Shown piece by piece: positions 1,571-60,716 of a stretch of 64,000 nucleotides of DNA. The position numbers and the translations under genes were made by a program. The notes under the pieces were generated by a model that had not been told where the DNA came from, did no database searches, and saw only the letters and a list, made by a program, of their open reading frames with translations. The DNA is from Trichodelitschia bisporula (taxonomy: Eukaryota). Location of the stretch: NCBI GenBank assembly GCA_010356995.1, contig ML996703.1:124001-188000 (forward strand). Reading direction: 5' to 3'. Each line of letters opens with the position of its first letter. Within the stretch, counting starts at the first letter, position 1.

Positions 1571-3314
1571 TCACGCCGTCAGCGTGTACTCCACCGAGTT
1601 CCCCGGCTGGCGCGGAAAAAACTCAAAGGTAAACGTCGCCGCCATTTTCTTCGACGTCACCGCGTCCACAGCGCCCTTGGTGAGGATGACGCTCTTGCCG
1701 TCCCAGTTCCAGTGGTTGTTATACGTCTATTCATGATCAGCCTCACGATCCCCACAGTACCAGAGGACTCACCACATATCCCTGCTGCAACGGTCCCAAA
1801 TACTTCGTCCAGTCGTCGGCCAAGTAACTCTGATCCGAAAACCGCGCCTTCACAGCCGCTATCTTCGGCAACCCCTTCCACGTAACCGGAATATGCAAAT
1901 CCGCCCCACTCACGGCCTGCGAACTCTTCGCCCCGAGCACCGGCACATCCCACTGCACCAGCTGCACGCGGACGTCGGCACCGGCGCTGAAGCTCACGGT
2001 CAAGTTCGCGCGCACGCCCGCCGGCCCGGTCGTCGCAAAGTACTTCCCAAGGAATGCCGGCGTGAACGCAACCCCGGACCCACGGACCGCATAATCGCGC
2101 GGCGCAACCAGCGCCCCGTCCGGGCCGGTCACGCTCTTAACGGTATTCCCATTGAGCTCGAATGTGATCGTGCTCTCCTTCACCGGCTGTCCGAGCTTGT
2201 GGAACACGAACGCGGAGCTCGTCTGCGTCGTGGCCTTCGGGTCGGTCGTCCCATCCGGCAGCGCGTTGCGTACCCCACGGGCGGCGTTGAAGTACACCTC
2301 CTTTCCTGTCGGGTCACGTATGGTCCGCGCGGCCCTATCCAGGAAATCGTCCCCGTTGTCCCACAGGATAGTCGCAGTGTCATACTTCTTCGCCGCTTGG
2401 GAAAACGCATCAAAGTACCGCCAGCGCGCGCCAGGCTCGACCGTTGCTCCCGCGGACCACTCCCCAATCACAAGGGGCACGTTGGTGAAATTTCCACGCA
2501 CGGCCGCGATATCCGCCTCCAGCGCCGCCTTGTCCTCCGCAGAGCCCCAGACCGTCTTGCCCCAAGCGCCGAAGATGAAGTCGTACGGTGAGTAGTAGTG
2601 GTACTGCAGAGCCCAAGGATTCTTGATACCGGGCGGTACCTTAAACCACTGGCTCGTCTTCGGGCCATCTTCGCCGAGCCCGACAAGCGTTACCACGCGC
2701 TGTACATTGTGCCCGCCAGCTGCGGCGATGGCTTCAAGGAACACACCGTTCATGCGGTTCAGAATGTCGGCGTGCTCCTTCGTCGTGCCCTTCGGCTCGT
2801 TGATCGGCTCGAAGGCGACTTCCGGCCCGGCGCACGCGAGTTTCTGCCCGATCTGCGTCCACAGCGCGCGGAACTTATCCTCAATCGCCTTAACATCCGC
2901 CCCTCCGGCGGTAAAATCGAACCACTGCCAGCTATCGTGGTGCACATTGAGCACGACGTAGAACCCGCGTGAGGTCGCCATGTCTGTTACTGCTGCTACG
3001 CGGTCCAGCCATTTCGCGTCGACCGTGTAGTCCGGCGCGGGCCCGATCTTGGTTGTCCATGTTATGGGGAGGCGCACGCTTTTGAAGCCTGCCTTCTTGA
3101 TGTCGTCCAAGACGGTGGGAACGACGGGTGGGTTGTTCCATGACCCTTCGTCAGGGACGGCGTCGAGCGTGTTGCCCAGGTTCCAGCCGGGTGTGAGAGC
3201 GTGGATGAAGGCCGAGGCATCGATGGCCTTGAAGGTACCCGGGCACTGAACTGGTGCTTCGGCGGCAGGGAGAGCGAGCGCCGTGGCGGCGAGCGCCAGC
3301 AAGGTGAGCTTCAT
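1571..3314 (-). CDS. Secreted GH5 endoglucanase (GH5_4-like) with C-terminal Ig-like X2/CBM46-like region
   Basis: Signal peptide MKLTLLALAATALA. Motifs GWNLGN, NVHHDSW, EPINEP (acid/base), HYYSP, IGEW (nucleophile), WDNG. Intron 1727-1772 (GTGAGT...TAG) leads to last exon TYNNHWNWD...VEYTLTA*. Confidence 0.93.
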
Positions 3315-3760
3315 AGTGAGTGACGGCTCCAACGCCTACGACTCAACGGAAATGAACGACTGTATGGTTAAACGAATGTCAACAACAACAAAGACGTGCG
3401 TCCAGCACACCGTTATACCAAACTCGCGGACGCACAAGCTCCGGAGAAATTCCCATCGCCCGTGACGGTTATGCTGCCGCTTCTATATTGCTCCTATAAG
3501 CCTTATACGGACCGTCCGGGCCCGGGCCACGCAGGCCATATTCCGGCCCGGCCTTACGGGATAATCAATCTCGGACGGGGCCCGCGCGGCCGGATAGCGT
3601 GCCGAGGGCGGGTTTGGGCACGGCGTAATGGGGCATGGCTCAAGGCACGAGGAAAAGTAAGGAGTGCAGAGTGAAAGCATTGTAACAGACGAAAAACAGA
3701 AGAAATAAGAGTGGTAGGGCCGCTCATGTCTAGATATACTTGTTGTCATGTTTACAGACT

Positions 3761-3984
3761 GATGTTGACACGAGGCAGGAGCATTACTGGGAAGGAAGGA
3801 ATATGGCAATGTGCTCACGATAGAAGGAAGGAACATGGGAGGATATTTGCCGCATGGTGAATTTAGTTTCAAGCGTCTCTTCACTCTCTTCTTCTCTTTC
3901 ACTGCAGACTGTAATCATTGCACGTGTCAAGCCTATGCTCCATTACAGACTCGAGATGGTGTTGCTCTTTTTGTTCGATGCTAG
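3761..3984. repeat. Dispersed degenerate element, copy A
   Basis: Colinear motifs shared with 40482-40743 and 58419-58620: GATGT(T/A)GACA(C/T)GA, GAGCATT, GGAAGGA, GGAGGA, TG(A/T)ATTTA, CT-rich tract, GCACGTG, CCAT. Confidence 0.7.
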
Positions 3985-3985
3985 T

Positions 3986-5400
3986 TCAGTTCCCTTTCCC
4001 CTTCCCGCTCTGCAACGTCACCGCCTCCGCGCTCGACACACACGGCAACCCAACGCCGCCCTTGACATTATCGCAGACAATGACCTCCTTCCCCTTCGCA
4101 TTCGGGCTCGTGATATTGATATTGCGCAGCTCGATGCCCGAGCACGTCGCGCCGGGGGAGCAGAGCAACTCCGCGATCTTGTTCTTCCTCTTCCCGCTGC
4201 TCGTCCCAGTGATATTGATGAACCTGACATCCGAGATATTGACCCGGCTCGGGTACTTCGCGCACTCCGCCGGCTTAACGCTGAAATAGCACTGGTCCAG
4301 CACGAGGGGATAATCCGTGTTCACCACGTGGATGTCCTCGTATGTGACGTTGCGGATATACCCATACCCCACGTCCTTCCCCGCCCACGCCTTGAGCCTA
4401 GCGCCGGTCTGGCCATTCAGCAGCGTCACATTCTTGATATACGCATTTGAGATGTAATCCAGGGTTCCCGGGTATTGGCCGATGGACCCCATGCTCACGC
4501 CGTGCGTGTTGTTGCACCACAAATTCTCAACATGAATATTCGTGGTATTCGGCTTCGGGCTGAAGCAATCATCCCCAACGTCGACCTCGGTGTTCGTAAC
4601 CCTTAGCCCATCCACATTCCAGCTATCAAACCCATCCGTATTCTTCGGCCTATTCTCATTCGAAGAATGCGAATCAAACCGACACCGGTCAAATGCCACG
4701 TTCTTCGTCCGGACCAGGAACGTGCTCCAGCATGGCGAGTTCAGGAACCGGAGCCCGGAGATCTCGATATTCGTCGCGTTGTCCGTCATGAACAGAATGG
4801 GTCGCAGGTACGTATTCTCCTTGTCTAGGATCTCGCGCCCGGCGAACCCGTCGTACCACGCTTGGCCGTTGCCGTTGATCGTCCCGCGGCCGAAGATTTT
4901 GATGTCGGACCCGCCCCAGACCCAGAATGTGATGCTCTTTTGGAAGTCGTAGTAGAAGTGGTTGGCTTGCCAGTAGGGAATGTCATCGGTAAACTGCCTC
5001 CAATTAGCTCACCCTCATGGCTCGAGGCAGCGCAACCTACCTTGATCTCCCCATCCACTCTCACGTACACATCCCTCAAAAACGTCAAATCCAGCTTCTT
5101 CCCAAGAACATACGTCTTCCCCGCCTCCAACACCAACAACCCCCCCCCATTCGCACTCTTCAACCCCGCCAGGAACTCCGCCGAAACATCATCGGTATCG
5201 CTCGCCGATGCCCGGATGGTAGTCCGCTTCCGATCCGCCTCAAGACAATTCCCCCAGTTATCAGTCCCAGTCGCGCATTTTTTGACCGGCGCGGGGTCCA
5301 CGACCGTCAATCCACCTTCTAACTCGCCCACAGGCGCGAGGAACCGCGCGTGCGCGAGCAGCGGCAGCAACTGCAACAAAAAGAGCGTAAGACCGCGCAT
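3986..5400 (-). CDS. pgxB: Secreted GH28 exo-polygalacturonase (PgxB-like)
   Basis: Signal peptide. GH28 motifs NTDGFD, GDDC, HGVSMGS, RLK. Intron 4994-5040 joins GEIK|FTDDIPYWQ. The subfamily call is from recalled similarity. Confidence 0.9.
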
Positions 5401-16617: not shown

Positions 16618-19600
16618 ATGGCGGACCAGGTCACCATCGACAAGAAACTCTTCCACGACCGGCTGTCCGCCTTTCTCGCCGCTTGGAAGACAGACAGGCG
16701 GTCCGGCGATGGCATCTTCCAGGGCGTTGGCTCGATCGTGATTTGTGTTGGCAAAGCGAGCGAGGGAGAATATCCAAAGAGCTCGGCCTTCCAGGTATGG
16801 TTCTTGTGCCCATCGCGAGGCTGTCACTGACGTGAACAGCTATGGCTCTTCGGGTACGAGTTCCCAACGAGTTTGTTCATCATCACGCCGGAGACGCTGC
16901 ACGTTGTCATGACGAAGAAGAAGGGTGCGTCACATTCATGATAGATGGGATATTCAGCGGACTAACCCTCCACAGCCACCTACATCCAACCGCTCAAGGA
17001 TGGCAAAGTTCCCATCGAGATTGAGCTTTGCAACAAGGACCCGCTTCAGAATGGGACACAACTGAAAAAATGCCTGGATATCATCAAGGCGGCCGGGGTG
17101 GGTACTAGTTGCCACTCGCATTGGACCTCATGCTGATTGTGGTGCAGAAAAAGGTCGGCGTGCTCTCCAAGGAGAATCCCGCCGGTCCGTTTGCTCAAGA
17201 ATGGTCGAAAGTGTTCGGAGGCATCTCGAAAGAGCTGGACCTGGTCGAGATCTCCAACGTCTTTTCGGCGGCTGCACTTGCGGTCAAGGATGAGCGTGAA
17301 CTCGTGAGTGGTGACAACCTCCGTTTGTCCGTTATCTGACGCCTTTAGCGTGCGATCCGCGATGCCTCTCGCGCGTCGAGCGGCCTTCTCAAGGAATTCT
17401 TCGTAGAGGAGATGTCTGGCATCCTGGACGAGGAGAAGAAGATCACACACGCCCAGCTGGCAGATAAGGTCAACGCAAAGATCGAGGAGCCGCAGTTCTT
17501 CAAGCAGTTGAAGGTCGCTGCGGGCTTCGACCCAACTGCGCTCGACTGGGCGACGATGCCAGTGGTTCAGAGCGGAGGCAGCTACACTCTCAAGTTCGAC
17601 ACCCCATCGGATAACAGCAGCCTCCACGCCGGTGTGATCGTCTGCGCTCTTGGGCTGCGGTACCAGTCATATGCCTCTCTCGTTGCCCGCACGTATATGG
17701 TTGACCCAAATAAGGAGCAAGAGGAGAATTACGCGTTCCTCTTGGAGGTTCAGAAGTTGGTGTTCAAAAATCTCCGGGGAGATGTTTTGGCGAAGGATGT
17801 CTACAATAAGGCCCTCAGCTACGTCGCCTCCAAGAAGCCGCACCTTAAGGACCACTTCTTGAAGTCGATCGGTGCGGGCATCGGTGTTGAGAACCAGGAC
17901 CCGAATCTGGTGTTGAACAGCAAGAATACGCGCCCGCTCAAAGATGGGATGACACTTACCATAGTTGTCGGCTTTCAGGGGCTCGAGAACAAGAAGGCTA
18001 AGAATCAGCGTGGCAAGGTCTACTCCCTCATCCTCGCCGACACTGTCCGGGTGACCGGTGGCGAGCCGGCTGTTTTCACGAAGGACGCCCCCGCTGACTT
18101 GGAGACCATCGCATTCTTCTTCAACGACTCGGAACAAGAAGAGGAAGCGCCTAAACCAAAGGCCAAGAAGGATGCTAAGATTGGTGCGGTCGCCCAGAAG
18201 AACATCACGGCCACACGGCTTCGTAACGAGCGGGCGGCGAACCAAGATGCCGAGAAGGAGGCTGCGCGTCGCGAGCATCAAAAGGAGCTCCATGCGAAGA
18301 AGCAAGAACAAGGCTTGGAGAAGTATGTCAAGGGTACCGGGAATCTCAACGGCACGGAGGAGCGTAAGTTCAAGCGGTTCGAGTCGTACAAGCGCGACAG
18401 CCAGCTTCCGCCTCGGGTCAAGGACAACATTGTCGTTGTGGATTCCAAGAGCTTCACCGTCGTCGTTCCTATCATGGGTCGGGCGGTGCCTTTCCACATC
18501 AACACAATCAAGAACGCCAACCTCACCCCCGAGGGTGAATTCACGTCCCTGCGCATCAACTTCCTGTCCCCGGGCCAGGGTGTTGGTCGCAAGGAAGATC
18601 ATCCTTTTGAGGACCCCAACGCCCACTTCGTACGCAGCTTGACGTTTCGGTCGCAAGACACGGACCGGATGCAGGCCATTGTCCAGCAGATTACCGAACT
18701 CAAGAAGGATGTCGTTCGACGTGAAACTGAGAAGAAGCAGATGGCGGACGTTGTGGAGCAGGACAAGCTTATCATCGACCGTCGGCCCGCGAGGCTGGAG
18801 AGCGTGTTCTTGCGCCCGTCGATTGACAGCAAGCGTGTCAGCGGCGAGGTTCAGATCCACCAGAACGGTCTGACGTACTCCCATGGTATGGGCAACGCGT
18901 CCATCGACATCCTCTTCAACAACATCCGTCATCTCTTCTTCCAACCATGCAAGAGCGAGCTGATTGTTCTCATCCACATCCACCTGATCAACCCGATCAT
19001 GATCGGAAAGCGGAAGACGACGGACATTCAGTTCATGCGCGAAGCGACGGATATGCAGTTCGACGAGACTGGCAACCGCAAGCGCAAGCAGCGCTATGGT
19101 GACGATGAGGAATTCCAGGCCGAGCAGGAGGAGCGTAGGCGCCGCGCGGAGCTCGACAAGCAGTTCCTCAACTTCGCCAAGAAGATCGAGGATGCCGGCC
19201 GCGACACCATTCGCGTTGATATTCCTTTTAGGGATCTTGGCTTCAATGGCGTGCCCGCGCGTTCGAGCGTCTGGATTTCGCCAACGACGGACTGCCTCGT
19301 CCAGTTGACGGAGCCGCCGTTCCTGGTGATTACTCTGTACGACATTGAGATTGTACATCTGGAGCGCGTGCAGGTTAGTTTTCCGATGTCGTATACGCTT
19401 CCACTGAGCTAACGATCGCAGTTTGGTCTCAAAAACTTCGACATGGTCGTCGTATTCAAGGACTTCACCCGCGCCCCGCAGCACATCAACACCATCCCGG
19501 TGGAGTCGTTGGACGCGGTCAAGGATTGGCTCGACAGCGTCGAGATCCCCTTCACCGAGGGTCCGCTCAACCTGCAGTGGCCGACCATCATGAAAACCGT

Positions 19601-19916
19601 CCAGGCCGACCCGCACACCTTCTTCGTAGAGGGCGGCTGGTCCTTCCTTGGTGCGAACTCGGACTCTGAGGACGAAGAACAGAGCTCCGAGGAGTCGGCC
19701 TTTGAGCTGTCGGACGAGGAAGTGGTGAGCGACGAGAGCGAAAGTGAGGCGTCGGACTTTGACGAAGATGCGTCTGCTGAGGAGACTGATCCTGATGCGT
19801 CGGAGGACGATGACACGGAGGGTGAAGACTGGGATGAGCTTGAGAAGAATGCTAAGAAAGCGGATCGTGCCCGTCCGGAGCAGGAGGAGCCTGCCCCTCG
19901 GAAGCGCAAGCGTTAA
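16618..19916 (+). CDS. SPT16: FACT complex subunit Spt16
   Basis: [59 protein letters not shown] and an acidic tail. Introns about 16795-16839, 16925-16975, 17098-17147, 17304-17348, 19374-19421. Confidence 0.97.
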
Positions 19917-20154
19917 GCGCGCTTGGGCTTCTTTCTCGGGTTGGATCTCTTCTGACATAGTGTGTTTGTGTCTCGTGGCGCTGTGATAAAACTACTATCG
20001 TTTCCCCGTTGTATTGTTACGGTGCGTGGCGTTCTCCGAGTGGGTTATCAACGGTCACTAGTTAGATTGCCGCAACACTGTAATGGTCGGTTGAAAAAGT
20101 TCTTTGCCTAGGGATGATATGCTGCTGTGTGAAGTCTCTGGTTCTAATACCCAT

Positions 20155-26204: not shown

Positions 26205-27503
26205 TGCGATGAGGGGGGATTGATGCAAGAAAGATGTCGTGGGTAGCGTGAAGTCGAAGGTGAGTTGTCGAGAGCCAACTCGTTGCCGTGGACAAACAGC
26301 TGGAGGAGGGGTAGTGGTTGACGGGAGTCGGAGGGCGTATGCAGTCAGGTGTTTGCTACACAGGACCGGGGCGCAAGAACAGAACAGTCGGAAAGTGAGA
26401 GCGTGTTTCCCTGGCGGCAGCTGTGTGAGGAAGGCGTGCGGGGGGGCGTGGTTGCTTGTTGAGTGTGTGTGCGGGTGTGCCGCATGTGTGGGGTGGGATG
26501 TGTTTGTACCTTCTGTGCAGTTGGAAGGTGACGGGTACAAGAGAGAAGATGTGGCATTCCTGCCCTCAACACTTCGGCAGGGCACCTTGGCCCCGCCCCC
26601 CTCCGCAGCTCTGCCTGCCGTCTGTGCTACCGTCCCCGGGCGCTTTCCCCCGCACTTCTTCCTTGGCGGACGTTGCTTGCCGCCGCTAGCCGTGGGTATG
26701 ATGCGCTAGCCCCACTCCAACCATCACGACTTCAACCTCTGGTGTTTCCACCGTGAATCTGACGCTGTACACTGCAGCTTGAGGTGTGCTGTAGCTCGGT
26801 GCACGCTACATTCTACGACTCTCTACAGTACTCGCGATGTCTGACTTCTCCAGGATCAATGGTCCCTTAATTGCCGGAGATGCGTCCTCCATACGGGCAT
26901 CCCCCTCGTGTTGAGCCTCGTCACTGCGACCGCGACCAGGCAGTGATAGCCGACGAGCCATTGAGCCGTCAGTTCCTGATTGCATGCATTACAATCCCTA
27001 CGACTATGCATATTTGCAATCACAGCCCTTGCTGGTGGTCCGGGATCTCACTGTTAAAGCGGCAGACAGTCTCGAGAGCAGACTCCTCATTAGATGCATC
27101 ACAGCTTCATTTGACCGTCTTAGTACGTTGCACAGCTTAGAGACGAACACACAGTCTAAAATTTCTCCTATCCGATTCAGTTGTTCGAATAATTGCACGT
27201 GTTAATGGTTTACTCGCGATGCCAGGTTGCAGCTGGCAGGTGTCTGCAGTACAAGGCCCATTCAATGGTGCCAACCCCAGCTCAATGACATTCTGGGCCT
27301 TGTTCCATCGGAACCTTCAACAAAGGAAACCTTGTCTAGGATCCGAACTTGAAGGACTTTGTTCATGAGTTCTCCGCTCAGCTGCCCAATGTACAAATAC
27401 TTGCCTATCAGGCCAGAAAACGTCCCCGCTTATACGCCAATAGACTGACTACGGTACCTACAGTTCAGACAGGCAGCTCACCACCATCAATCCCACAAAC
27501 AAC

Positions 27504-28526
27504 ATGTATCTCAAACTTACCACCACCCTCATGGCGGCTCTCCTGCCCTCAGTCTGGGCCCACCCCGCCAGGCCCGCCAGCCTCGGTACCTTTGGAGGCC
27601 AGGGTCTCGACGTCACGACGCCCAAGCCAGATGACATGGCGTATCACTTCAGAATTGACCTCAGCGGTATCTGCACCATGGCTACGTTCCCCGAGGGAGC
27701 TCACTACGTGGCCACGCCAGGTTACTACTGCATGGTTTACTCAGGCGCCGACTGCAACAGCGTGATTGCCTACAAAGTCACCGACCAGGAGCCCGCTGAC
27801 CGCAGTCTTCCCGGCACCTGGAGGAGCTACCGATGCTTCAAGGCTGGAAAGCCGAGGATGATACGGCGGGCAGGCAGCTCCCCCACTCCGCCACCAATGG
27901 CTTCCCAAGAATTCGATCTCAACGTCATGGAGCCAAATAAGAAACTCATGCTCGCCAGAACTTTCCGGACCGATCAGTGCGCCAACGTTACCGGTGTGCT
28001 CCTTGAGGGATCTCACTACCAGGCTACGCTAGGCTACTAGTGTATGGTGTACGAATCCAGCAACTGCGGCGGCGTGGTTGCCCACAAGGTCACTGATCAC
28101 GAGCCCGCTGACCGCATTCTTCCCGGCACCTGGCGGAGCACCAAGTGCTTCAAGGCTGAAAAGCCGAGGTTGATACGGCGGGCAGACAGCTCTCTCCCTC
28201 CGCCGGGTTTCGAAGACTTCGGTCTCAACGCCACGAGGCCAAGTAAGTCCTTCATGTACGTCAGAACTGGCTTGACCGATACGTGCTTCACCATTACTGG
28301 TATGATCCCTGAGGGGTCTCACTACCAGGTTACGCCAGGCTACTACTGTATGGTGTACGGAGTCGACAACTGCGGCGGTGTGGTCGCCTACAAGGTCACC
28401 GATCACGAGCCCAGTAACCGCACCCTTCCCGGCACCTGGCAGAGTTCCAAGTGCTACAAGGCTGGAAATGCAACGCTGGCGCGACGAGAAGTTGGGGAGG
28501 AGGTGTCGTTGTTCGGCATCAGGTAA
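27504..28526 (+). pseudogene. Secreted three-module 4-Cys repeat polyprotein with RR junctions, interrupted by in-frame TAG (28038-28040)
   Basis: ORFs 27504-28040 and 28044-28526 are in the same frame. Three ~103-aa homologous modules (EGxHY..T.GYYCMVY....C..V.A.KVTD.EP..R.LPGTW.S..C.KA). The TAG aligns with TAC in modules 1 and 3. Confidence 0.75.
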
Positions 28527-29544
28527 GGCACCATTTTGGAATGGCTGGCATGCTGTGAGAGTAGGATGGCGTTTTAGTTCTGTGTGCGGCTGTGTAAGTG
28601 CCTGCAAAGTGCTGGGATACACCAGTCTCTCTGGGCTTACACACTATGTGAGTCCTCCACCGAATTCAAGCTTGCTAGCTCTTGCCATTTTCTGCTTGAG
28701 AATCTGAGATTGCAGCGTGCTGTTTGATTCTGCTTGAAAACTGACATTTCAACCCGAATGCTCAGGGGAAGGCTTCCCGTTACCGCGAGTCGGCAACCTC
28801 TTCCCACCTTCAATACGAGCTGGACCAGGCTGACTGGGCATGCCGGCGTGGAGGATCCGTCTTGTCTAGAACTCGTCCGCCGTGGCAAAAGGCGGGCCTC
28901 AGCAACTAGGGACGGCTTCGACTGTAGTGGGACGCAGCCATATGCGTACCGGCACAGGAGGAAGAGCAGGCCGTCTGGAAAGCCAAAAGATCAGATGGCG
29001 CCGAGAAGACGAAGAGATCCAGACCGCGCCGAGCGAGCTCCAAGATGCGGACTCCAGCTGGATATCAAGTCTTTCGGTCAGCAGAGCTAGGAGCGGCTTC
29101 TAATGCTAATCCAGACTCCTCACCGCACCTTCAACGAAACCCATTCAGGGTCTCACATGCAAGTTGGCACGCGCCGCACCTCAACATGTACCGTACCGCA
29201 AATCAAGATATGCATGTTCATCGGACTGGCCAGCACATCGCATTCTCCACACCTGCATCCCCCCATCCCAAAAGGCCCACTTTCCAAAACCGGGCAGACG
29301 ATTTGACATCCCACTCGTCAAACCCACCCACTCACAGCCTCACCCGATCCCATTCAGCATACCAACCCTGATCCGCCCGTATATGCGCGCCACATCAGAT
29401 CTCACACCGTCCAGAAACACGGGTCCGGCGCCCGGGCCTCAGCGAGCCGCCGACCACGGCTATTCGGCATGCCGTCCATACCCGAAGCACCCTTTTCCCC
29501 CATATTTCCTGCCGGCGTAAGACACGTCGGCGCTTATCTGAGAT

Positions 29545-29561
29545 CCCCCCCCCCCCCCCCC
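29545..29561. repeat. Poly-C(17) tract
   Basis: Direct reading. Confidence 0.85.
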
Positions 29562-31478
29562 GCCGCGTCTTATTCTCCTATCGGTACGGCAGACCCACTC
29601 GCGGCCGGCGCCGGTCCGCGCCCGCGTCCGAGGTCGGTCGTGCGGTGGATATCTCCGCCGGCAGGCGAGACATGTCTGACATGCACCGCCTGTGCAGGAT
29701 GGAAGCATGCGGGTTCGGTGCACTGTCGCGGCAGCGTGGTCGTCTATCGCGGTGGCAGCTTCGATGGCGGGGCGATTGTCGATCGCAGGTGGGGATATGA
29801 GGGGGTATGCGGTAGTATTGCTATCGTGAGTCCTATTGCGTGGTTTCGAGCCTTCGTGATGAGAAGGAGGGAGGTTAGCCCCCGTTGAACGCAAGAGCCG
29901 CACGCCTGAGAGCCGCACGCCGACGGCACTCCTTCTCTCTCAGCCGTCCATTGCCAATTCGCGGCTGCCCCCAAATTGAAGGCCGAAAACGGTGGCCACC
30001 AGCCAACGCCCCTTCCGTCACCCAGCAACCTCTCCTCCTCCTAAACGGGGATAACTCCGGTCTCAGAGCAACGGTAAAAGCCCACCCAGCAGCTTCGCGT
30101 AATTGCGTTCTCCGTAAGTATCTCCCATCTGCACAGACATCGGCACTTCCCCTCTCACAAACCCCGACATCCGCATCCGGCAGGTGATCGTCCCGCCAAC
30201 CAGACGCGCAGACCAGCGGCGCGCTCGATCGCTGACATACTCCCTCGGCCGAACATCACACCCATTCGTCCCGCCTGCGTGAACCTATCTGCCAGTACAT
30301 CCGTACACTTGATACGTCCGCCGATCAGCAGCACCGAGATACGCACAGATACATGTCATGCCCGCATCTTTGCACATCTTGGTCAGTGTGCGGATAAGGT
30401 ACGAACAAGGCGAGTGCTAGTCATAATTCCAGCGCCGCCACCCCCCCGCCGTGGACGCCGTGGCTGGTGCCTCGCCGAGCGTCCGGCCCCTGAGGCGCAA
30501 AACCGGATACAGGACCAGTACCGTACCGTAAAGGCGCGGAGCATCCCGTTGCGGGCCGCGCGAGTACTCCAATGGACTTGCCCGGTTACACTCCGCAGAC
30601 CCTGTTTCCGTGCCTGTAGACCCTGTTTATGTTCGCGTTCCTGAATCTCGATCGGACACACTGGATACCGTATACGGAGGTAAGTATCCAGCCTCGCAGT
30701 CATAGGCGTGAATATCGCAATTCCCGCAGTCTTGGGAGGGTAGATTGAAGGGAGATGTAAAACTGGTCAGGCTTAAGGAATGCGCGCCACGGCCGCCTTC
30801 AAGCTCCTGCTAGAGGACGTGGGCGGATAAGCGCCCGCCACGCGGCTGGGCGTGGCGGGCGGGTGTGGAGATTTGGGGGATGGGATAAGGTTTGGTGAGG
30901 CGTGCTAGCTGAGATCCTACGGGAAGGGGGAAGGTTTAGGGTTCAACCGTGGGAATTATTGTTCTTCCAACAGCTGTTGTCCCATGGTGATGGTGAAGGC
31001 AGATGGTGGAAGAGATATTGATGCTTCGCGATCACTGGCAAGAGAAGTAGTATCGAAGGATATATTTGCACATCCACCATCAACCTCATTACACCCATCC
31101 ACCGACGGCCCATTTTCCACTATTAACCCGGCCGCCCCTCAAGCCACATCAAGCTTTTGATCCGCCCACCTGCATCAAGGCCGCCCGCACACTGCCCGTC
31201 TAGTCCCTCTCATAGTTACAGGTAAAGGTCCTCAAACTCGCCCAGCCGCTGGCAACACGAGATTCAGACGCGACAAAAAAGACCAACGCTCGCTCGATCT
31301 CTCAAAAATAATAGTTGTGTGCCCATAAAGATCCGAGTCCTCAGAATAACGCCCCATAAATGCGCGCGCGCAATGTTTCGCGGTCCAAATACTAGTATGG
31401 TATCAAAAACATGTGCAGACGTCCTGCACCGCCAATCCTCATCCAACCCCCCTTTCCATCATCAACAGCCAAGAGAAT

Positions 31479-33257
31479 TTACAAGCCAGAATCGCCCTGC
31501 GAGAACCCAGGAATCGAGTTCTCGAACGCAGTCCACGTCTTGCACCCATCATTGAAGCCAGACAGATCCCCAAGCGCGCCAATAACCTCCGTCGGGCGCT
31601 CAATGAACTGCACACCCAGACCGCCCGAGATATGGAACGGGATGTGGCAATGCAGCAGCCAGGCACCGGGGTTATCGCTGTTGAACGCAATGACAATGTA
31701 GCCACCGTTGGCGACAGTGTGCGTATCACGACGGATCGGGTTCTGAAGGTTCAGCGCCACACCAGTGCCAGACCCGGTCCCGTCAGCCACGACGTAGAAA
31801 TCGTGGCCGTGGAGATGGATCGGATGGGGCAGGGGCGAGTCGTTCTGGATCAGCCAGAAAGTCCACGTGTCCACGCCGCCGGCGATCGTGATACCGTTGT
31901 CGGTCTTCGGGAGCGTGTAGGTGCCGTTCTCGATGTATTGCAGGGTAGGCTTGGTCCAGTCGATCAGGATCGACTCGTTGTTGACCTTCCAGGCGACACC
32001 GGCGGAGACGTCGAGGGTGAGGTCGAGCTCGGTGGGGGCGGTGGCGGGCGAACCCGGGTTGAGTGCGACGAAGGGCACGAGGCCGGTCTCGTCGAAGCAG
32101 CCCGTGGACAGGGTATACGGCGTCGAGGTCGGGTTGCCGGAAGGCGCGCCGACGTAGCTGAAGATGGCGCCCTGGGTGTCAGTCTTCTCGTTCGGGCCGT
32201 CGCACTGGCCGCCGCCGGTGCCGATGCGGAACCAGTAGTTGGCGACGGGCTGGTTAGCCTCAATCACAACATCGTAGCGCTGGCCTGTGGATTGTTAGAT
32301 TTTGATCGTTGAGGGGATATGCGAATTACTCACCGACAGCAAGGACAAGCTGCGTCGTCGTGTACGGCTTGATGGGCACGAAGTCGTTGGCAATGACGGT
32401 GAACGGGTGGCCGTCCAGCGAGACGTGCAGGTAGGCGTTGATGCCCGTGTTCACGAGGCGGAGGAGGTGCTTCTTGCCGGGGGTCAGGGTGGTGACGCCG
32501 TACTTCCCCTGGCCGTTGTAGACGGAGGTACCGTTGTACAGGACGCTCTGGGCAGTGGGCGGGGCAGCGGGGCGCGAAGCCAAGATGGTGAACACGGGGG
32601 TGTGGAACCAATCGGTCATGGCGACGACACCGAGGTCAATATCGTAGTTGGCGGTGGCCGGGCCGTTGATCTTGATCGTGCCAACCAGACCATCGGCGTA
32701 CTGAACCGAGTAATGGGAGTGGTACCACGAGGTGCCGTACTGCGTCGCCTTGAAGGTGTAGGTCTTGGACTGGCCGGGTGCGATGGGGCACTCGGTGATA
32801 CCGTTAGTGCCGTCCATTTGGTTGCTGTTCAGCTGGCGCAGACCGTGCCAATGAATCGAGGTGCCGTTGTCGGGCAGGCTGTTGGAGACGGTGATTTGGA
32901 GGGTGTCGCCCCAATCAGCCTCGAGGGTGGGGCCGGGATATTGGCCGTTGAAGACCTGCACCTCGCGGGACACGCCATCGAAGGCCATCGTCTTCTTGGA
33001 CACATCAAGATGGTACTGGAACTTTGTCAGCCTTGCCCCACAGCGACGAGCGTCGCACATACCGTCACCGTCTTGCCGGTGTCCGGGAACTTGGCGTAGG
33101 GGTTCGTGGAGACACTGAAGCCGTCCTTCCAGCATGACCGTGTGCTGGGCCCGTTTGTGCAGGCGGAGTCGCGCTCAGCGAGGTGAGGAATGGCGGTAGC
33201 GAAGGTCGAGGAGGCGAGTGCCAGAAGGCAGGCCCCGACGGCCGGGAGGGAATACAT
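31479..33257 (-). CDS. Secreted laccase / multicopper oxidase (AA1)
   Basis: Signal peptide; Cu motifs HWHG, WYHSH, HPIHLHGH, HCHIPFH; ascomycete C-terminal DSGL. Introns 33016-33062 and 32285-32333. Confidence 0.96.
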
Positions 33258-41094: not shown

Positions 41095-44000
41095 CTACTT
41101 CTTCCCTTTGCCTTTGCCACCGTTGACGATGGCATCGTTCGAAGCCGTGGAGTCCTTCGACTCCTTCTTGTCCTTAGCGTTTTTCTTGCCCTTCTTGTTC
41201 TTAGAGTCCTTATAGTCCTCCGAGTCCTTCTCACCCTTCCTACCGAAAAGCCCCTTGATCCACCCCTTGAACCCCTTGTCACCCTTCTCGCGCTCCTGCG
41301 CCTCCCGGATGCGCCGAACGGCATCACCCCCAACCGCAATCGGCTTGTCAGCCGGCCGCACAATGGAAGGCTGCGACAAGCTGCTCCAGTCATGACGAAC
41401 ACCCATAAGCGGATGATAAAAGTGCGGCATCGACTGCGATGGCTGCAGCGTCTGCTGACCACCAGGCAACTGCACCGGAAAGCGCCGACCAGCCGCATCC
41501 GCCTGCCCAGCAAGAATGTGCGCCGGAAGACCCGGAACCGGAGGCATCGACGACTCACGATTCGGCGCGGCAGGGCTGCCGGGACGAGTGGGAAGCGCCT
41601 TCATCAGCGATGCCGGCGACGGGCGGATAGGCGATTCATACTGCTTGCGCAGACCGGTGGGACGCGAAGGCGTGTCCGGCGACGCACCTAGCGACGGCGC
41701 GTTGAAGAGCATGGGCATCGAGTGCGCGGCCACCATGTGATGAGGCGTAGGACCCGGGGCACGAGCCGGAGGCGTACGGTTCGTGCGGTGAATCAGCTCT
41801 TGCATAGCACGCTCGGAGCCCTTGAGAGGAGAATGCTCGATAGGCGGACCCGCGGCGCCGAGAGTATCCGCATCGGCCATCATGTGGCGGCGGTAGTTGC
41901 GCATCATGTACTCACCACGGTCTTCATTTGATGTGGCACCCGGGTTGGGAAACTTGAGCTTCGACAATGCGGCTTGGTCGTAGAGCCACTGGCGGTCGTA
42001 CTTCGAAGCGGAGTATTCCTGGATCGGGATGCGCTCGTGGTACTGGCCGGGTCCGTTGGATGGCATCTGCTCGCGCGGCTGGAACATCTCATGGTCGGGC
42101 TTAGGCGGCATCGCGAAGTGGGGCTTGCGCGAAGGCTTGGGATGCGCCTGACGGTTGCGTTCAAACCACTCTCGATTCTCGCGCTCCTGGTCTGTCTCAC
42201 CCTTGTGCTCATTCGACTCAGGAGAGCGGTACGGGAAGCCCGTAATGAAGTCTGACATCGGCATGGGAGCCGTCTGCTGCAGATTGTAGATCCGGTCGAA
42301 GTCCGGAGGAGCAACGGCCGTCTCCCGCAAGAACGAAGGCACAATCTGGTCGTAGTCGCGAGGAGGGCCTGTACGCTTGACCCGAATGCTACCCGCAACC
42401 GTGGTCTGCTGGCTCGGACCAGCAGTGGCAGTCATACCCCGACTAGGCCCAGCAACCGTAGCCGTCGAGTGGACATTCGCGAAGTCGGGAGGGATACCAG
42501 AGGCATCACGGATCTCCTGCGGAATGGCGTTCCAAAGCTCGGACGCGGTACCGGTAGCATCATGGGGTTGATCCGGTGAATGATTCCAGCGGTTAAGGAA
42601 GTCCTGCACTTTAGCAGAATTGACCGGCTGCGGGTGATAGATCCGCTCGAAGTCAGGAGGATGGACGGCCGAGTTACGAAGGAACGACGGCACAATCTCG
42701 TCGTAATCGCGAGGCCGAAGGTTCTGCGCGGTCTGGCAAGGACTGGCGGCCGAGGTCGACGAGGGGATGTCCTTAAACCCGGGCGGGATGCCATGTGGAC
42801 CACGCGCCGGGTTCAGAGTAACGTTCTCAAACCCAGGCGGAACGGCAGGTGTCTTACGCACCGGATCGTCAAGCACATTTTCAAAGCCGGGCGGAACGGC
42901 ATGTGGATCGGGATACTTCTGGGGCGAGACATATGGCGGCCAACCAGTCATGAAATCTGACATCGTGGGAGGATCCGGCAGCGGCGCATAGCGCCGGCCA
43001 ATGTCTGGAGAAGCGGGAATGGCGTTCTCATTGTAGTAGTAAGGACGAAGGTCGTGCGCGCTCTGGCTGGGACCGGCGACCGTGGCCGTGTAGCTAGGAC
43101 CAACGACAGTAGCCGTCTTGGTAGACTCGGCAGCCGTAGCCGTCTGACCAGGACCCACAGCCGCAGTCGCCTGAGTAGGCTCGGCAGCCATAGCTACGAG
43201 TATCTCGCCAGGCTCGGGAAACGCAATTGTCTTATCAGCCTCAGTAGCAGTATTCTTCTTCGACTTCGAGAAGATGTTCTTAAACAAATGCGGAATGCCC
43301 GACCCATCCCTCGCGGGCTGCGGCACGATATTCTCCAATCCAGGCGGGACGTGAGGAGCCGGGCGGGGCAGCAGAACGCTGGACCGATACTCGCCCCACG
43401 GGTAGATGGGCGTGGGACTAGGGACATTGCGCTCGAAGTCGGGGTAGCCCTCCGGCGAACCCGGGAATGGGATGTCGAAGTCGTCGAAGGACGGCGTTGA
43501 AGACTGGTCGTCGTTGTTGGCTGTCCCCTCGAGGTTGTCGGCGTTTTCTGGAGCTTGAGTATTGTCCTGGGGACCGGGCGCGATCGCGGGGATGGTATGA
43601 TTGGCAGGAGCGCTGTTGATAGGAACCGAAGCGCAATTATCGGACCGAGCAGCTGTGCCTGCGGCACCGAGGATGTAAGCCGACTTGCCGAGATCACTGT
43701 TGGATGCAAGAGAGCTGCCAGCCTGGCCGTCGTGGCTGCCGCCGCGGCCCTGGCGGATCAAGGAACGAAGGTAGTTGCGACGCTGATTCGGAGAGTCGAA
43801 CAAGCGGTCGTTCTCATAGACAGGTGCCTTTCCCTTCTTGTAACGCTGATTCGGAGTTCCGAGCAAGTAGTCGTCGGTTTCGTAGACAGGCGCTTTGCCC
43901 TTCTTGTCGACGCGCTTGTCATGCTTGATGTCCGTCTCGTCAGGAAGGTTCATCGCGGCGTCGTTGTCGGTCAACTCGCCCATCTTCTTGAGCTCAGGCA

Positions 44001-44730
44001 GAACCTGCGCTTCAGTCTTGCCCTCCAGAGCAGCGGCAGCTGCCTGGATAGAAGCGCCAACTTCAGCGTCCATCTCAGCATCTTGCCAGTGAAAGCCATC
44101 AAGCGGCGCGGTGCCTTCGAGATACATGGTGGCGTGACGACGAGCACGCTTGATAGCCTTGGCTTCCTCTTCAGCCTTTCTAGCCGTTTGAGCCTCCAGC
44201 TCCTCTTCGACCTTCTTATTCTGTTCATTTATCTCCTTCATCAGACGAGCATTGTCGGCCTTCACCACACCTCCCAGTTCAACCATTTTTCCAGACTCAT
44301 GCTGACGCGCCTTCTGCACATCCGCCAGGTCCGCAAGCCACTGGGTACGCGGTGATGGAACATATGCCTCGCTCCCGTCCTGAAGGCCTTGCTTCTGCGT
44401 CTCCTTAGACTGACGCAACTCCTTGCTGGCCTTGGCCAAGAGCGCAGGCGCCGGAACAGGAGGAGGGAGATTGTTCCGCGTGCGATAGATATTCATCCGC
44501 GAGTAGTACTCGCGACGAGACATGTGCCCCTCACGCGCCGAGCGGGGAGCAGACAGAGGAGACGAGCCCGGGAACGCCCCCTCCACATCGCGCTGCGAGG
44601 GACGCGGGCGGGGCAGCGGGGAGGGGGAACCAGGCAAGGCCGGCGAGTTCCCGGTTTCGATAACGTTATACTTCTGGACCGTGGACAGGTTGTTGCCTTT
44701 GATGGGCAGCTTGTTACCTTGGATGGGCAA
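41095..44730 (-). CDS. Large low-complexity orphan protein with internal repeats (~1200 aa; 5' end uncertain)
   Basis: 3.6 kb uninterrupted ORF with coding-like codon use, a coiled-coil-like segment, repeated PPG[F/L] and PPDF motifs, and a Lys-rich C-terminus. The track start is TTG; a possible acceptor (TTAAC..TAG) lies at about 44759. Confidence 0.8.
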   Translation of the reverse strand: MPIQGNKLPIKGNNLSTVQKYNVIETGNSPALPGSPSPLPRPRPSQRDVEGAFPGSSPLSAPRSAREGHMSRREYYSRMNIYRTRNNLPPPVPAPALLAKASKELRQSKETQKQGLQDGSEAYVPSPRTQWLADLADVQKARQHESGKMVELGGVVKADNARLMKEINEQNKKVEEELEAQTARKAEEEAKAIKRARRHATMYLEGTAPLDGFHWQDAEMDAEVGASIQAAAAALEGKTEAQVLPELKKMGELTDNDAAMNLPDETDIKHDKRVDKKGKAPVYETDDYLLGTPNQRYKKGKAPVYENDRLFDSPNQRRNYLRSLIRQGRGGSHDGQAGSSLASNSDLGKSAYILGAAGTAARSDNCASVPINSAPANHTIPAIAPGPQDNTQAPENADNLEGTANNDDQSSTPSFDDFDIPFPGSPEGYPDFERNVPSPTPIYPWGEYRSSVLLPRPAPHVPPGLENIVPQPARDGSGIPHLFKNIFSKSKKNTATEADKTIAFPEPGEILVAMAAEPTQATAAVGPGQTATAAESTKTATVVGPSYTATVAGPSQSAHDLRPYYYNENAIPASPDIGRRYAPLPDPPTMSDFMTGWPPYVSPQKYPDPHAVPPGFENVLDDPVRKTPAVPPGFENVTLNPARGPHGIPPGFKDIPSSTSAASPCQTAQNLRPRDYDEIVPSFLRNSAVHPPDFERIYHPQPVNSAKVQDFLNRWNHSPDQPHDATGTASELWNAIPQEIRDASGIPPDFANVHSTATVAGPSRGMTATAGPSQQTTVAGSIRVKRTGPPRDYDQIVPSFLRETAVAPPDFDRIYNLQQTAPMPMSDFITGFPYRSPESNEHKGETDQERENREWFERNRQAHPKPSRKPHFAMPPKPDHEMFQPREQMPSNGPGQYHERIPIQEYSASKYDRQWLYDQAALSKLKFPNPGATSNEDRGEYMMRNYRRHMMADADTLGAAGPPIEHSPLKGSERAMQELIHRTNRTPPARAPGPTPHHMVAAHSMPMLFNAPSLGASPDTPSRPTGLRKQYESPIRPSPASLMKALPTRPGSPAAPNRESSMPPVPGLPAHILAGQADAAGRRFPVQLPGGQQTLQPSQSMPHFYHPLMGVRHDWSSLSQPSIVRPADKPIAVGGDAVRRIREAQEREKGDKGFKGWIKGLFGRKGEKDSEDYKDSKNKKGKKNAKDKKESKDSTASNDAIVNGGKGKGKK

Positions 44731-45322
44731 CCTCTTGATGGCGCTTCCAGCTTTGATCCTAGAAGATGTTAACTTTCGATTCTGAAAACGTGCATTGCCC
44801 TCTCTTGTTAGAGTTGGGGCTGCATAGAAAGTGAAGGCAGAGTGATGGTGGAGAGGTGGGGGCTAGTATCACGGACTCCGGGCATATGGGCAGTGGAAGG
44901 GCAGTGATGTGTCGAGAAGCATCGGCTGGGGTGAACTAGCCGGATCGATCACAGACCAAGATGTACGAAAATAGGTAAACCTCTCAAGTTATATCTACCG
45001 TGTAGACATAGAACCAAGCGAAAGTGCATCCTAAGAAAACCACGCCAAGTATGCTTACTCGTAATCAGGAATTGGGTTCCAGTTGGGAGGAAGCCGATTG
45101 ACCCACTCAGGGACACAGTCAGCATCGACAGGCTCGGACATGATCTCATGGCTCTTAAGAGCATTGCGCGGACTGACGGACGTTAGTATTATGACCAGCA
45201 AGATATTTGTGAATGTCCGGATATCATCAGCGCAAAAGACGGGATGCGCAGCGCAGAGCCCAAAAAGAAAAACCAAAACGAGCTACGCCGAAGCGCGCCC
45301 GAAGCCCAAAAGCCTCTTCAAC

Positions 45323-58282: not shown

Positions 58283-58736
58283 GGGACTAGTCGATTCTTC
58301 TATAAGCACGAATACAGGTAACCAACCGTTCAGCAATAACTTTCCCTCCCGAAGGAGCATGACTTGAATCCCACCCCATCCTGATTCACCGTCGTAAACC
58401 TGGATGTAGGCCCACGGTGATGTAGACATGAAAGGAGCATTGGTATGTCAGGAAGGAGCGTATGATATAATGCGAGCATGATAGAAGGAAGGCGCAAAGG
58501 AGGATACTTGGCATTGTGTATTTAAATCTCTAGAGTCTCTGACTCTTCTTCTCTTTGTCTTCTACTTCAATCTTCAGTTTTACAGTTGCCTTGTCGCACG
58601 TGATGAGCCTCTACACCCATCACACGGGAACTGGGTCCATTATTCTACAAGCACGAATACAGTATCCAACCGCTTATCAATAACTTTCCCTCCCGGGAGT
58701 AACATGAATCCACCCACTCCTTCCTGATTTACCGTC
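58283..58736. repeat. ~110 bp direct repeat pair (58283-58393 and 58626-58736) flanking element copy C
   Basis: Shared TTCTA(T/C)AAGCACGAATACAG..CCAACCG..CAATAACTTTCCCTCCCG..TGAATCC..TCCTGATT(C/T)ACCGTC. Confidence 0.88.
58419..58620. repeat. Dispersed degenerate element, copy C
   Basis: Same colinear motifs as copies A and B. Confidence 0.78.
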
Positions 58737-60716
58737 CAGCCTCCTCAAGCCCGCGTTCCAAACTCCCAAACAAATCCATCTCCCCATCCGGGTACCTCGG
58801 CTTCTTCGTCTCTTCCACCCTCTCCGGCACCGGCGCAGGCGGCACAGCCTCCTCCTTCCCCTCCTCCCCTCCAACCCCCTCCACCACAACCCCAGTCTCA
58901 AGCCCAGGACCCTCCCTCTCCATCACAACACCCTCAGCCACCGGCTCGGGCTCGGGCTGGGTCTCCGGCTGCGGCGCGGGCTCGGCGGCGGGCTCGGTGG
59001 CTTCGAAGGCTTCGGCATTAGGCTCGACCACTGGTGCAGACGTGGGTTCGGGGGCGAGGTCATGCACAGGTTCCGGCGGGGGGATGATCGGGGCGGGAGG
59101 ATCGACGACGGGGATGGGGGTGGGAGCGGGCGCGGGGGGGGAAGGTTGGCGGTTGGGCGGCGGCGCGGGCGCGGGCGCGGGAGGGGAAGCTTGACGAGGA
59201 GGTGGGGGCGTGGGAGGGGAAGCTTGACGAGGCGAGGGTGCGGAAGGGGAAGCTTGACTAGGAGGCGGGGGGGCGGGGAGAGGGGCGATGAAGGGGGCTG
59301 GGGGCGCGTCAGCATCGGCCATCACTGTGTCGTTTTGCTCTTGAGGTGGGAGGAGGGCTTCCGCCTGCGGCAGGGAGCCCGGGGGTGATTCGGGCTTCAC
59401 CTGCACCTCCGGTTGCGGCTGGGCCTGGTCCGGTTTGGTGTCGTTGACCTCGCCCTCCTCGCCCTCCTCGCCCTCCTCGTTCTCCTCGCCGGACTCCTCC
59501 TCGCCTTCCTCCGGGGCGTCGACCATCGGCGTGTCGCGCTCGCGGTCGGCCTCGGCAGGGGTAGGCTGCTCCTTGGGCACATCGTCAGCGACTGGTTTCT
59601 TCTCCTCAGGGGCAGACGGGGCGGCAGGCGTGCCCTCGGGCCCCACGCCCTCGAACAGCACCTTCTTCCGCCCGCGGCCGGGGCCCTTCTTGTGCTTCTT
59701 GCGTGGGGGCGGGGGCTTGCGCTTGTTAGGCGTGGGCTGGAGGAGGTCGTTGGCGATGAGCACGCCGAGGTCGTTCGCCACACCGACGCCTTCGATTATG
59801 GCGCCTGGCGTGACCTTTGCGATTGCCGCTTCGTCGTCTTCCTCCGGGACTTCGTTGTCCAGGACTTGCCCCTCAGGCGCGAGGACCTCGTACACCCGCA
59901 CCGAGCCATCAGGCTCGACCTTGCGCACCCGCGTCTTGCGCGACGCGGCGGGCGGCTGCACAGGCACCGGCGCGCCGCCCCACGTCGTCGGCAGGCCGCG
60001 GCGGCGCTTAGCCAGATACTCCTGCTCCGACTCCTCGAGATGGCGCGGGACGGCCGCCCAGCGCTTGGCCGTAAAACCGCGGGGCGGCTCCGTGTCCTTC
60101 TCGTCCTCGGGTGGGGGGTCGAGGGGATCGTCGTCCCCCGGTGGCGAGGGCGGTTTGTATATCCTGCCCGCGCGGGCGGCGCGGAGGAGCTGCTGGCTGA
60201 CTTCGGGGAGGAGGTGCGAGTCGCGCGGCATGGGGAGTTCGGGCCAGGGGGCTTTGTGGGTGGAGGGGGTGGGGTCAGGGGGGGGGGCGCCGATTGTGGC
60301 TTCGCTTTCGCGCCATTGGCGGATGGGGAGGCCTTTGAGGATTGTGTCGTCGTCGGCTTGGGTGCGGTTTTGGCGGCTGCTACGGAGCTGGCGGGGGGGG
60401 TAAAGGTTAGAACTAGTTGGTAAGAGAGGGGCGTAGGCTGGGTCGGGGTGAGGGTCGGGGGTTGGAGCGTGGAATTCGAGCAGTTTGAAGATGACTTCGG
60501 AGGTTGGTGGGCCCGAGAGATCTATGCTGTGGCGTCTTCCTGGCATGATGGCGATGATATGTTCAAAGAAGAAGGTTTGGAGGGATGGGAGAGCGTGAAG
60601 ACTGAAGTACAAGCAGAGACGAGGTAGGCGAGCGGAAAGAGCATGCCAACCCTTACGCCGTCACTCTGCCCGGTATCGGGCGACTCCAGTGGCAATTGCC
60701 ACGAGAAGCGTACCAT
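58729..60716 (-). CDS. Conserved-looking fungal Pro/Glu-rich nuclear hypothetical protein
   Basis: GLPIRQW, PWPELPMPRDSHLL, EYLAKRRRGL, basic NLS/AT-hook-like KKGPGRGRKK, C-terminal DLFGSLE. Probable ATG-only exon 60714-60716 plus intron 60388-60713. Confidence 0.8.

Follow-up and report, generated by a model that had tools for sequence, protein, structure and literature searches.

The locus at positions 27504..28526 of the analysed window, a 64 kb stretch of DNA, carries three tandem copies of a module of about 103 amino acids with four aligned cysteines, and its reading frame is interrupted by a TAG codon inside the second copy. Both the triplicated four-Cys architecture and the stop codon are real features of the sequence as given. 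The reading preferred here, at a probability of about 0.5, is a lineage-specific orphan gene for a secreted repeat protein that was recently inactivated and now persists as a pseudogene or truncated allele. Coordinates of the features of the locus are collected in Table 1.

Table 1. Features of the repeat locus (window coordinates)
Feature	Position	Strand	Remarks
Signal-peptide-like N-terminus with start codon	27504..27560	+	19 aa, ends V-W-A
Module 1	27561..27869	+	103 aa, 4 Cys, ends MIRR
RR site 1	27864..27869	+	CGG CGG, P4 Met
Module 2	27870..28181	+	104 codons, ends LIRR, stop codon inside
In-frame TAG, codon 179	28038-28040	+	read directly from the sequence
RR site 2	28176..28181	+	CGG CGG, P4 Leu
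Module 3	28182..28487	+	102 aa, 4 Cys, ends LARR, three N-x-T sequons
RR site 3	28482..28487	+	CGA CGA, P4 Leu, synonymous change relative to sites 1 and 2
Acidic tail and TAA stop (28524-28526)	28488..28526	+	tail of 12 aa
Upstream ORF	27504..28040	+	178 aa: signal-peptide-like start, module 1, N-half of module 2
Downstream ORF (P0001)	28044..28526	+	160 aa, first residue is the conserved internal Met of CMVY

The ATG at 27504 is the first in a stop-to-stop frame that opens at 27444. By rule-of-thumb reading, the N-terminus resembles a signal peptide, as the preliminary description had proposed: it has Lys4, a modest hydrophobic core (maximum Kyte–Doolittle mean of 1.78 over 11 aa) and V-W-A before His20. 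The modules that follow are homologous and of nearly equal length (103, 104 and 102 codons). Tandem Repeats Finder detected one array at 27688-28468 (period 306, 2.5 copies, 79% matches, score 923), so that at the DNA level only 2.5 copies are detectable; module-versus-module tblastn gave E = 3e-27, 1e-26 and 2.5e-36, and no fourth copy was found by tblastn in the 64 kb window, where the next best matches had E >= 0.34. The protein alignment of the three modules has 106 columns, of which 36 are invariant; the invariant columns comprise four Cys columns and, among others, Trp and Gly/Pro positions. Twelve cysteines fall into the four aligned columns (aa 57/76/84/111, 159/180/188/215 and 261/282/290/317). 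The division of each module into a variable N-half and a conserved C-half was also borne out by the alignment, the N-half of module 1 sharing about 44% identity with the N-halves of modules 2 and 3. An origin of the module by internal duplication was rejected on the result of hhalign (N-half versus C-half, probability 0.3%). The whole frame contains four N-x-S/T sequons, and each internal RR pair, after modules 1 and 2, is followed by a Pro/Ser-rich stretch.

The in-frame TAG takes the place of the second Tyr of the YYCMVY motif of modules 1 and 3, the best conserved motif of the module, module 2 reading GY*CMVY, with the asterisk marking the stop. Because of this codon, the frame consists of two ORFs (178 aa and 160 aa) and not of one gene. 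Of the three modules, module 1 alone is intact and also preceded by the signal-peptide-like start; translation from this start would give, after the putative signal peptide, at most module 1 and a fragment of 56 aa with a single Cys. The downstream ORF has no signal peptide and keeps the last three of the four cysteines of module 2. The preliminary description had taken 27504..28526 for one open gene and had missed the TAG; its further claim that this one gene releases three mini-proteins fails for the sequence as given, because the TAG interrupts module 2.

An intron that would remove the TAG was considered and rejected. Of 36 in-frame GT..AG spans covering the codon, none had a donor agreeing with GTAAGT at more than 3/6 positions, and any such intron would take out the module core. 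Repeat-induced point mutation (RIP) was also rejected as a source of the TAG or of the divergence between modules: relative to the paralogous Tyr codon the TAG is a transversion, and the transition/transversion values between modules (0.5-2.9) and the steady GC content (0.58-0.59) were also counted against it. The TpA/ApT index of 1.06 is inflated because of the Tyr codons.

The coding signature of the frame extends across the stop codon. GC content at codon positions 1/2/3 is 0.535/0.509/0.718, and GC3 per module is 0.69-0.75, including the modules past the TAG (0.69-0.73 downstream), as compared with 0.46-0.60 in the flanks and 0.62-0.77 in four Pfam-confirmed genes of the window. The frame holds two stops, one of them internal, versus 3-24 stops in the other five frames and about 11 expected from base composition; this comparison exaggerates the number of independent observations, since all three units go back to a single ancestral one. 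Indels between modules consist of whole codons only. The periodicity of GC3 and the conservation of the frame show, as far as can be judged from the DNA, that the locus was coding until recently, and the TAG would be recent, the sequence beyond it showing no additional decay.

Nei–Gojobori dN/dS between modules is 1.1-1.5 for the N-halves, 0.41-0.68 for the C-halves and 0.65-0.95 for the whole modules. In Fisher tests, dN was significantly lower than dS for the C-half in one of three comparisons (modules 1-3, p = 0.009), and none of the three N-half comparisons departed from neutrality. Purifying selection is thereby weakly indicated, with long-standing relaxed constraint as an alternative. 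Our own reading is that selection probably kept the gene open, the C-half being constrained and the N-half diverging freely or adaptively.

The RR pairs occupy aa 121-122, 225-226 and 327-328, and their codons begin exactly where the preliminary description had placed them (27864, 28176 and 28482). The frame contains no other RR or KR and one further dibasic pair, KK at aa 146-147. According to the K2PP effector study, Kex2 needs Arg at P1 and prefers Lys or Arg at P2 and Leu or another aliphatic residue at P4 (PMC8528282). The ends MIRR, LIRR and LARR match this aliphatic-x-R-R preference at the sequence level. Near the RR of module 3, four of the five preceding codons changed the encoded residue and the RR changed only synonymously; the last module retains its RR though only 12 residues follow. 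By arithmetic from composition, at 6.2% Arg an RR would arise by chance about once per 340 aa, and the three RR pairs amount to a single observation because all derive from one ancestral RR. The segments between the cut sites measure 101, 102 and 100 aa (aa 20-120, 123-224 and 227-326), and two of the three exceed 100 aa. The anatomy, a signal-peptide-like start followed by three paralogous four-Cys modules, appears to fit a kexin-processed repeat precursor. Counting against cleavage is the fact that Pro/Ser-rich linkers are equally typical of uncleaved multi-domain secreted proteins. That the Golgi kexin (Kex2) cut the intact ancestral protein behind every RR, giving pieces of about 11 kDa, is put, tentatively, at slightly less than even odds.

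Relatives of the modules were searched for exhaustively with a module profile in 1,835,955,588 protein representatives of all lengths at E <= 1e-3. Six matches were obtained, one of which is the 160-aa ORF of the window itself (P0001, E = 1e-81). Of the five weak matches, four are to long repeat proteins whose Ig-like surface domains belong to bacterial and S-layer families of Pfam (YDG; S-l_SbsC_C twice; Bact_surface_Ig-like with HYR), and the fifth is a repeat protein of 263 aa. The weak matches cover profile positions 17-90 only, each repeat scoring between -2.7 and 11.6 bits, and become significant because near-identical repeats are summed. The further family members with one to n modules that the preliminary description had proposed to look for were therefore not found among these 1.84 billion representatives. 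In a protein of 2653 aa with YDG domains (P0002), residues 1837-2334 form ten near-identical repeats of 51 aa with two Cys, each aligning at 5.8-9.3 bits to module positions 36-78, two module Cys columns included; this likeness is probably a convergent beta-hairpin motif.

Word-indexed searches in 5.8 billion clusters (lengths of 88-595 aa) with the 178-aa ORF, the read-through product with X at the stop and P0001 gave zero, zero and one match, respectively, the single match being the window's own ORF as a cluster of one member on one contig. In Pfam, no family scored above its cutoff for any of the three queries at E <= 10; the best was DUF1372 with 14.9 bits against a cutoff of 25, and module 3 matched S-l_SbsC_C with E = 0.064 and 14.2 bits, below the cutoff of 26.6. 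At the sequence level, assignment to the bacterial Ig-like surface repeats (S-l_SbsC_C, YDG or HYR type) would take a Pfam gathering score, and the scores obtained lie below it. Three module motifs, searched as strings, matched no paper in the full-text library used, and Rfam and tRNA scans of the window gave no matches. By these sequence searches, the family has a single member among predicted proteins, and the gene is an orphan.

The fold of the module was approached through structure models and embeddings. AlphaFold2 models of module 3 and module 1 reached pLDDT values of 37.9 and 39.0, the alignment having four rows, all from the window's own modules, and both of these low-confidence models contain beta strands only. 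A Foldseek search of the PDB with the module 3 model listed 188 matches, none of them at E <= 0.001 and the best with E = 2.5. Sequence searches of the PDB with the modules returned nothing below E = 0.25; the best matches, DNA primase large subunit (E = 0.25) and proton pyrophosphatase (E = 0.92), were rejected as chance. The best ESM-Atlas values, 0.88 and 0.84, belong to unnamed Ascomycota clusters, and all values are below the 0.9 at which the tool calls a lead. The recognition values were 2114 and 2236, a level of 2300 being reached by 91 of 100 proteins of known families.

A beta/gamma-crystallin-like or killer-toxin-like fold had been suggested from Cys spacing. Among the low-scoring named ESM-Atlas neighbours of module 1 are clusters of Inhibitor_I36 (0.78, the family being carried by 11% of members) and MiAMP1 (0.77), both under 0.9; Inhibitor_I36 is a family which we take to be of the same fold class as MiAMP1 and the killer toxin WmKT. 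A fold of this class would have two Greek-key motifs, and the signature Y-x4-Y-x-G fits module 1 only. MiAMP1 and WmKT are described as beta/gamma-crystallin folds in 10.1101/127746. The modules gave no Crystall, MiAMP1 or Inhibitor_I36 match in Pfam at E <= 10, and neither a family profile nor a solved structure was matched that would place them in this fold. The two sub-threshold ESM-Atlas leads are the sole hints of it, and a beta/gamma-crystallin-like fold is at most a conjecture.

Several other explanations concern the stop codon and the coding status of the locus. It is improbable that an error of sequencing or assembly, or a polymorphism private to the strain, produced the TAG and that the organism normally makes an intact precursor of 340 aa. 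Such an error would agree with the full retention of frame and coding composition past the TAG and with the single-base difference from the Tyr codon of modules 1 and 3; against it, the 160-aa downstream ORF, on a contig of 785,001 bp, is all that public protein sets contain of this locus, so that the gene callers evidently met the same TAG, and substitution errors are rare in contigs of such length. The same database entry is what speaks for the annotated 160-aa ORF as a real gene of a non-secreted protein, being the sole part of the locus in protein databases. This is nonetheless very hard to credit, since the ORF begins in the middle of a module, at the Met of CMVY, with three of the four module 2 cysteines and no signal peptide, and since homologous, equally coding-like sequence continues in frame upstream of it, as far as the ATG of the signal-peptide-like N-terminus. 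Nor is it at all probable that the locus was never a functional gene and is an ORF that arose by chance on a tandem repeat of DNA. A chance ORF would account for the lack of homologues, the overall dN/dS near 1 and the ESM-Atlas recognition values under the 2300 level; it is opposed by the strong third-position GC periodicity, the one internal stop in place of about 11, the restriction of indels to whole codons, the invariance of the four Cys, Trp and Gly/Pro positions and the signal-peptide-shaped start.

Another alternative concerns the form of the intact product, which could have been an uncleaved multi-domain secreted or cell-surface protein with three beta-sandwich-like domains joined by Pro/Ser-rich linkers, the RR pairs being incidental. 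The linker-type stretches after each internal RR, the beta-only models, the sub-threshold S-l_SbsC_C match of module 3, and the outside resemblances, which involve profile positions 36-78 and repeats in proteins with Ig-like surface domains, are consistent with such a protein. It is nevertheless considered unlikely: the weak matches owe their significance to summed near-identical repeats, the structure models are of low confidence, and an RR with an aliphatic P4 that persists despite synonymous change at all three module ends, the last one included, fits a cleavage site better than a linker. Doubtful, too, is the fully elaborated processing model, in which the intact gene would be a kexin polyprotein on the scale of domains, giving three diverged paralogues of about 11 kDa with two disulfides each, from a fold family with no detectable sequence relatives.

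Under the preferred reading, that of a recently inactivated orphan gene for a secreted repeat protein, a beta-rich four-Cys module of about 103 aa would have been triplicated in a fungal-type genome. The N-half of each module would have diverged fast and the C-half would have been conserved, with a C-terminal aliphatic-x-Arg-Arg followed by the Pro/Ser-rich stretch. The ancestral product was presumably secreted, as the signal-peptide-like start suggests; four Cys per module would allow self-contained disulfides, probably two in each. Kex2 may have cut this intact ancestor after each RR. The frame is now broken by the TAG, a premature stop lying within the conserved core of module 2.

Among known systems, the locus resembles fungal Kex2-processed repeat proteins (KEPs), as characterised in two surveys, in having a signal-peptide-like start and at least three tandem repeats with a dibasic Kex2-type site at the end of each (PMC6339444; PMC7329392). 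Cutting in silico at RR gives four fragments, a number in agreement with the fragment criterion of one pipeline (PMC6339444). The other survey accepted peptide units of 8-100 aa and threw out proteins with any separated sequence >100 aa (PMC7329392). The present locus falls outside that range of unit length and, owing to the TAG, has no uninterrupted precursor ORF. KEP cores are short peptides, whereas the units here are domain-sized, with 100-102 aa and four Cys; the locus also differs from KEPs in that no DUF3328 neighbour and no homologues were found. Similarly, Rep1, Hum3 and Rsp1 of Ustilago maydis are secreted and consist of imperfect tandem repeats parted by Kex2 sites, and processing was shown for Rep1; their repeats are of 18-55 aa and amphipathic or hydrophilic, unlike the Cys modules of about 100 aa found here, with which they share no sequence similarity (PMC4617103).

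The closest precedent for several mini-proteins from one gene would be, by analogy, the KP6 preprotoxin and CfCE72 of Cladosporium fulvum, in which one secreted precursor contains domain-sized disulfide-bonded parts with a kexin site between them; separation by kexin is known for KP6 and proposed for CfCE72 (10.1101/127746). These precursors join two unlike parts (alpha and beta in one, KP6-like and beta/gamma-crystallin-like in the other; 10.1101/127746), and the present locus has three paralogous copies of one module; the likeness to the module is one of layout, with no demonstrated relation in sequence or fold. Nematode polyprotein allergens such as ABA-1 are also comparable, being tandem polyproteins cut post-translationally into multiple similar small proteins (PMC3079579). 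MiAMP1 and WmKT are alike as small secreted disulfide-bonded beta proteins, a likeness without Pfam, PDB-sequence or fold-search support here. K2PP effectors are outlined in PMC8528282 as having a short disordered N-terminal pro-domain ended by KR, RR or LxxR and then a single mature domain; in the present frame the first RR, at aa 121-122, comes after a complete four-Cys module and not after a pro-domain.

A dikaritin- or ustiloxin-type RiPP locus would be expected to have a DUF3328 (UstYa) gene and short Tyr peptides as cores, and the units here are of about 100 aa. No DUF3328 match was found among 115 distinct ORFs of the window (ORFs of >=150 aa window-wide and of >=110 aa within 21.2-36.5 kb, a scan that shorter exons escape); because of this, a dikaritin-type cluster is unsupported, in agreement with the absence of UstYa genes noted earlier.

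The neighbours in the window are ordinary genes, namely, GH5, GH28, WD40, mitochondrial carrier, SPT16, 6PGD, NIPSNAP, multicopper oxidase and RhoGAP. On the minus strand at 1743-5008, a GH5 cellulase with a CBM_X2 module (1743-3335) adjoins an ORF of the GH28 polygalacturonase type (3986-5008); CBM_X2 is more usual in bacterial enzymes. Two further open frames on the minus strand, 41095-44862 (1255 aa) and 58729-60660 (643 aa), matched no Pfam family at E <= 1e-3. The region 28600-31350, about 2.7 kb before the multicopper oxidase (31479-33174, minus strand), contains only Arg/Pro-rich ORFs without a Pfam match, and could be intergenic sequence or contain one more orphan gene. A 774-aa ORF with no Pfam match (17667-19991, minus strand) lies antisense to the SPT16/FACT gene (17349-19916, plus strand), and a 204-aa ORF (28029-28643, minus strand) lies over the repeat gene; both look like shadow ORFs, the former of a GC3-rich gene.

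At the 3' end of the locus, a donor-like GTAAGG at 28523 shares bases with the terminal TAA, and a GT..AG span of 55 nt from this donor to 28577 would join the frame to a plus-strand ORF that runs to 28707 and encodes a short hydrophobic stretch at its end. An intron at 28523-28577 was judged unlikely: no branch-site motif was seen in it by eye, and the database protein P0001 does not extend past the TAA.

The locus, in its present state one orphan copy interrupted by a stop codon, is a lead for re-mining and not a finding on function; as a functional class, a diversified secreted protein with a binding or antimicrobial role would be the likeliest, at low confidence. If the polyprotein model is true, one gene would have carried a 'paralogue cocktail' in which a conserved beta core is combined with rapidly diversifying N-halves, and the TAG in module 2 would show that the upstream modules of such precursors survive truncation. 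If the RR sites are used, kexin-processed repeat precursors would extend from short peptides to whole disulfide-bonded domains. More genes of this kind could be hidden in fungal secretomes, because the mining of KEPs, by the rule given in PMC7329392, drops separated sequences longer than 100 aa.
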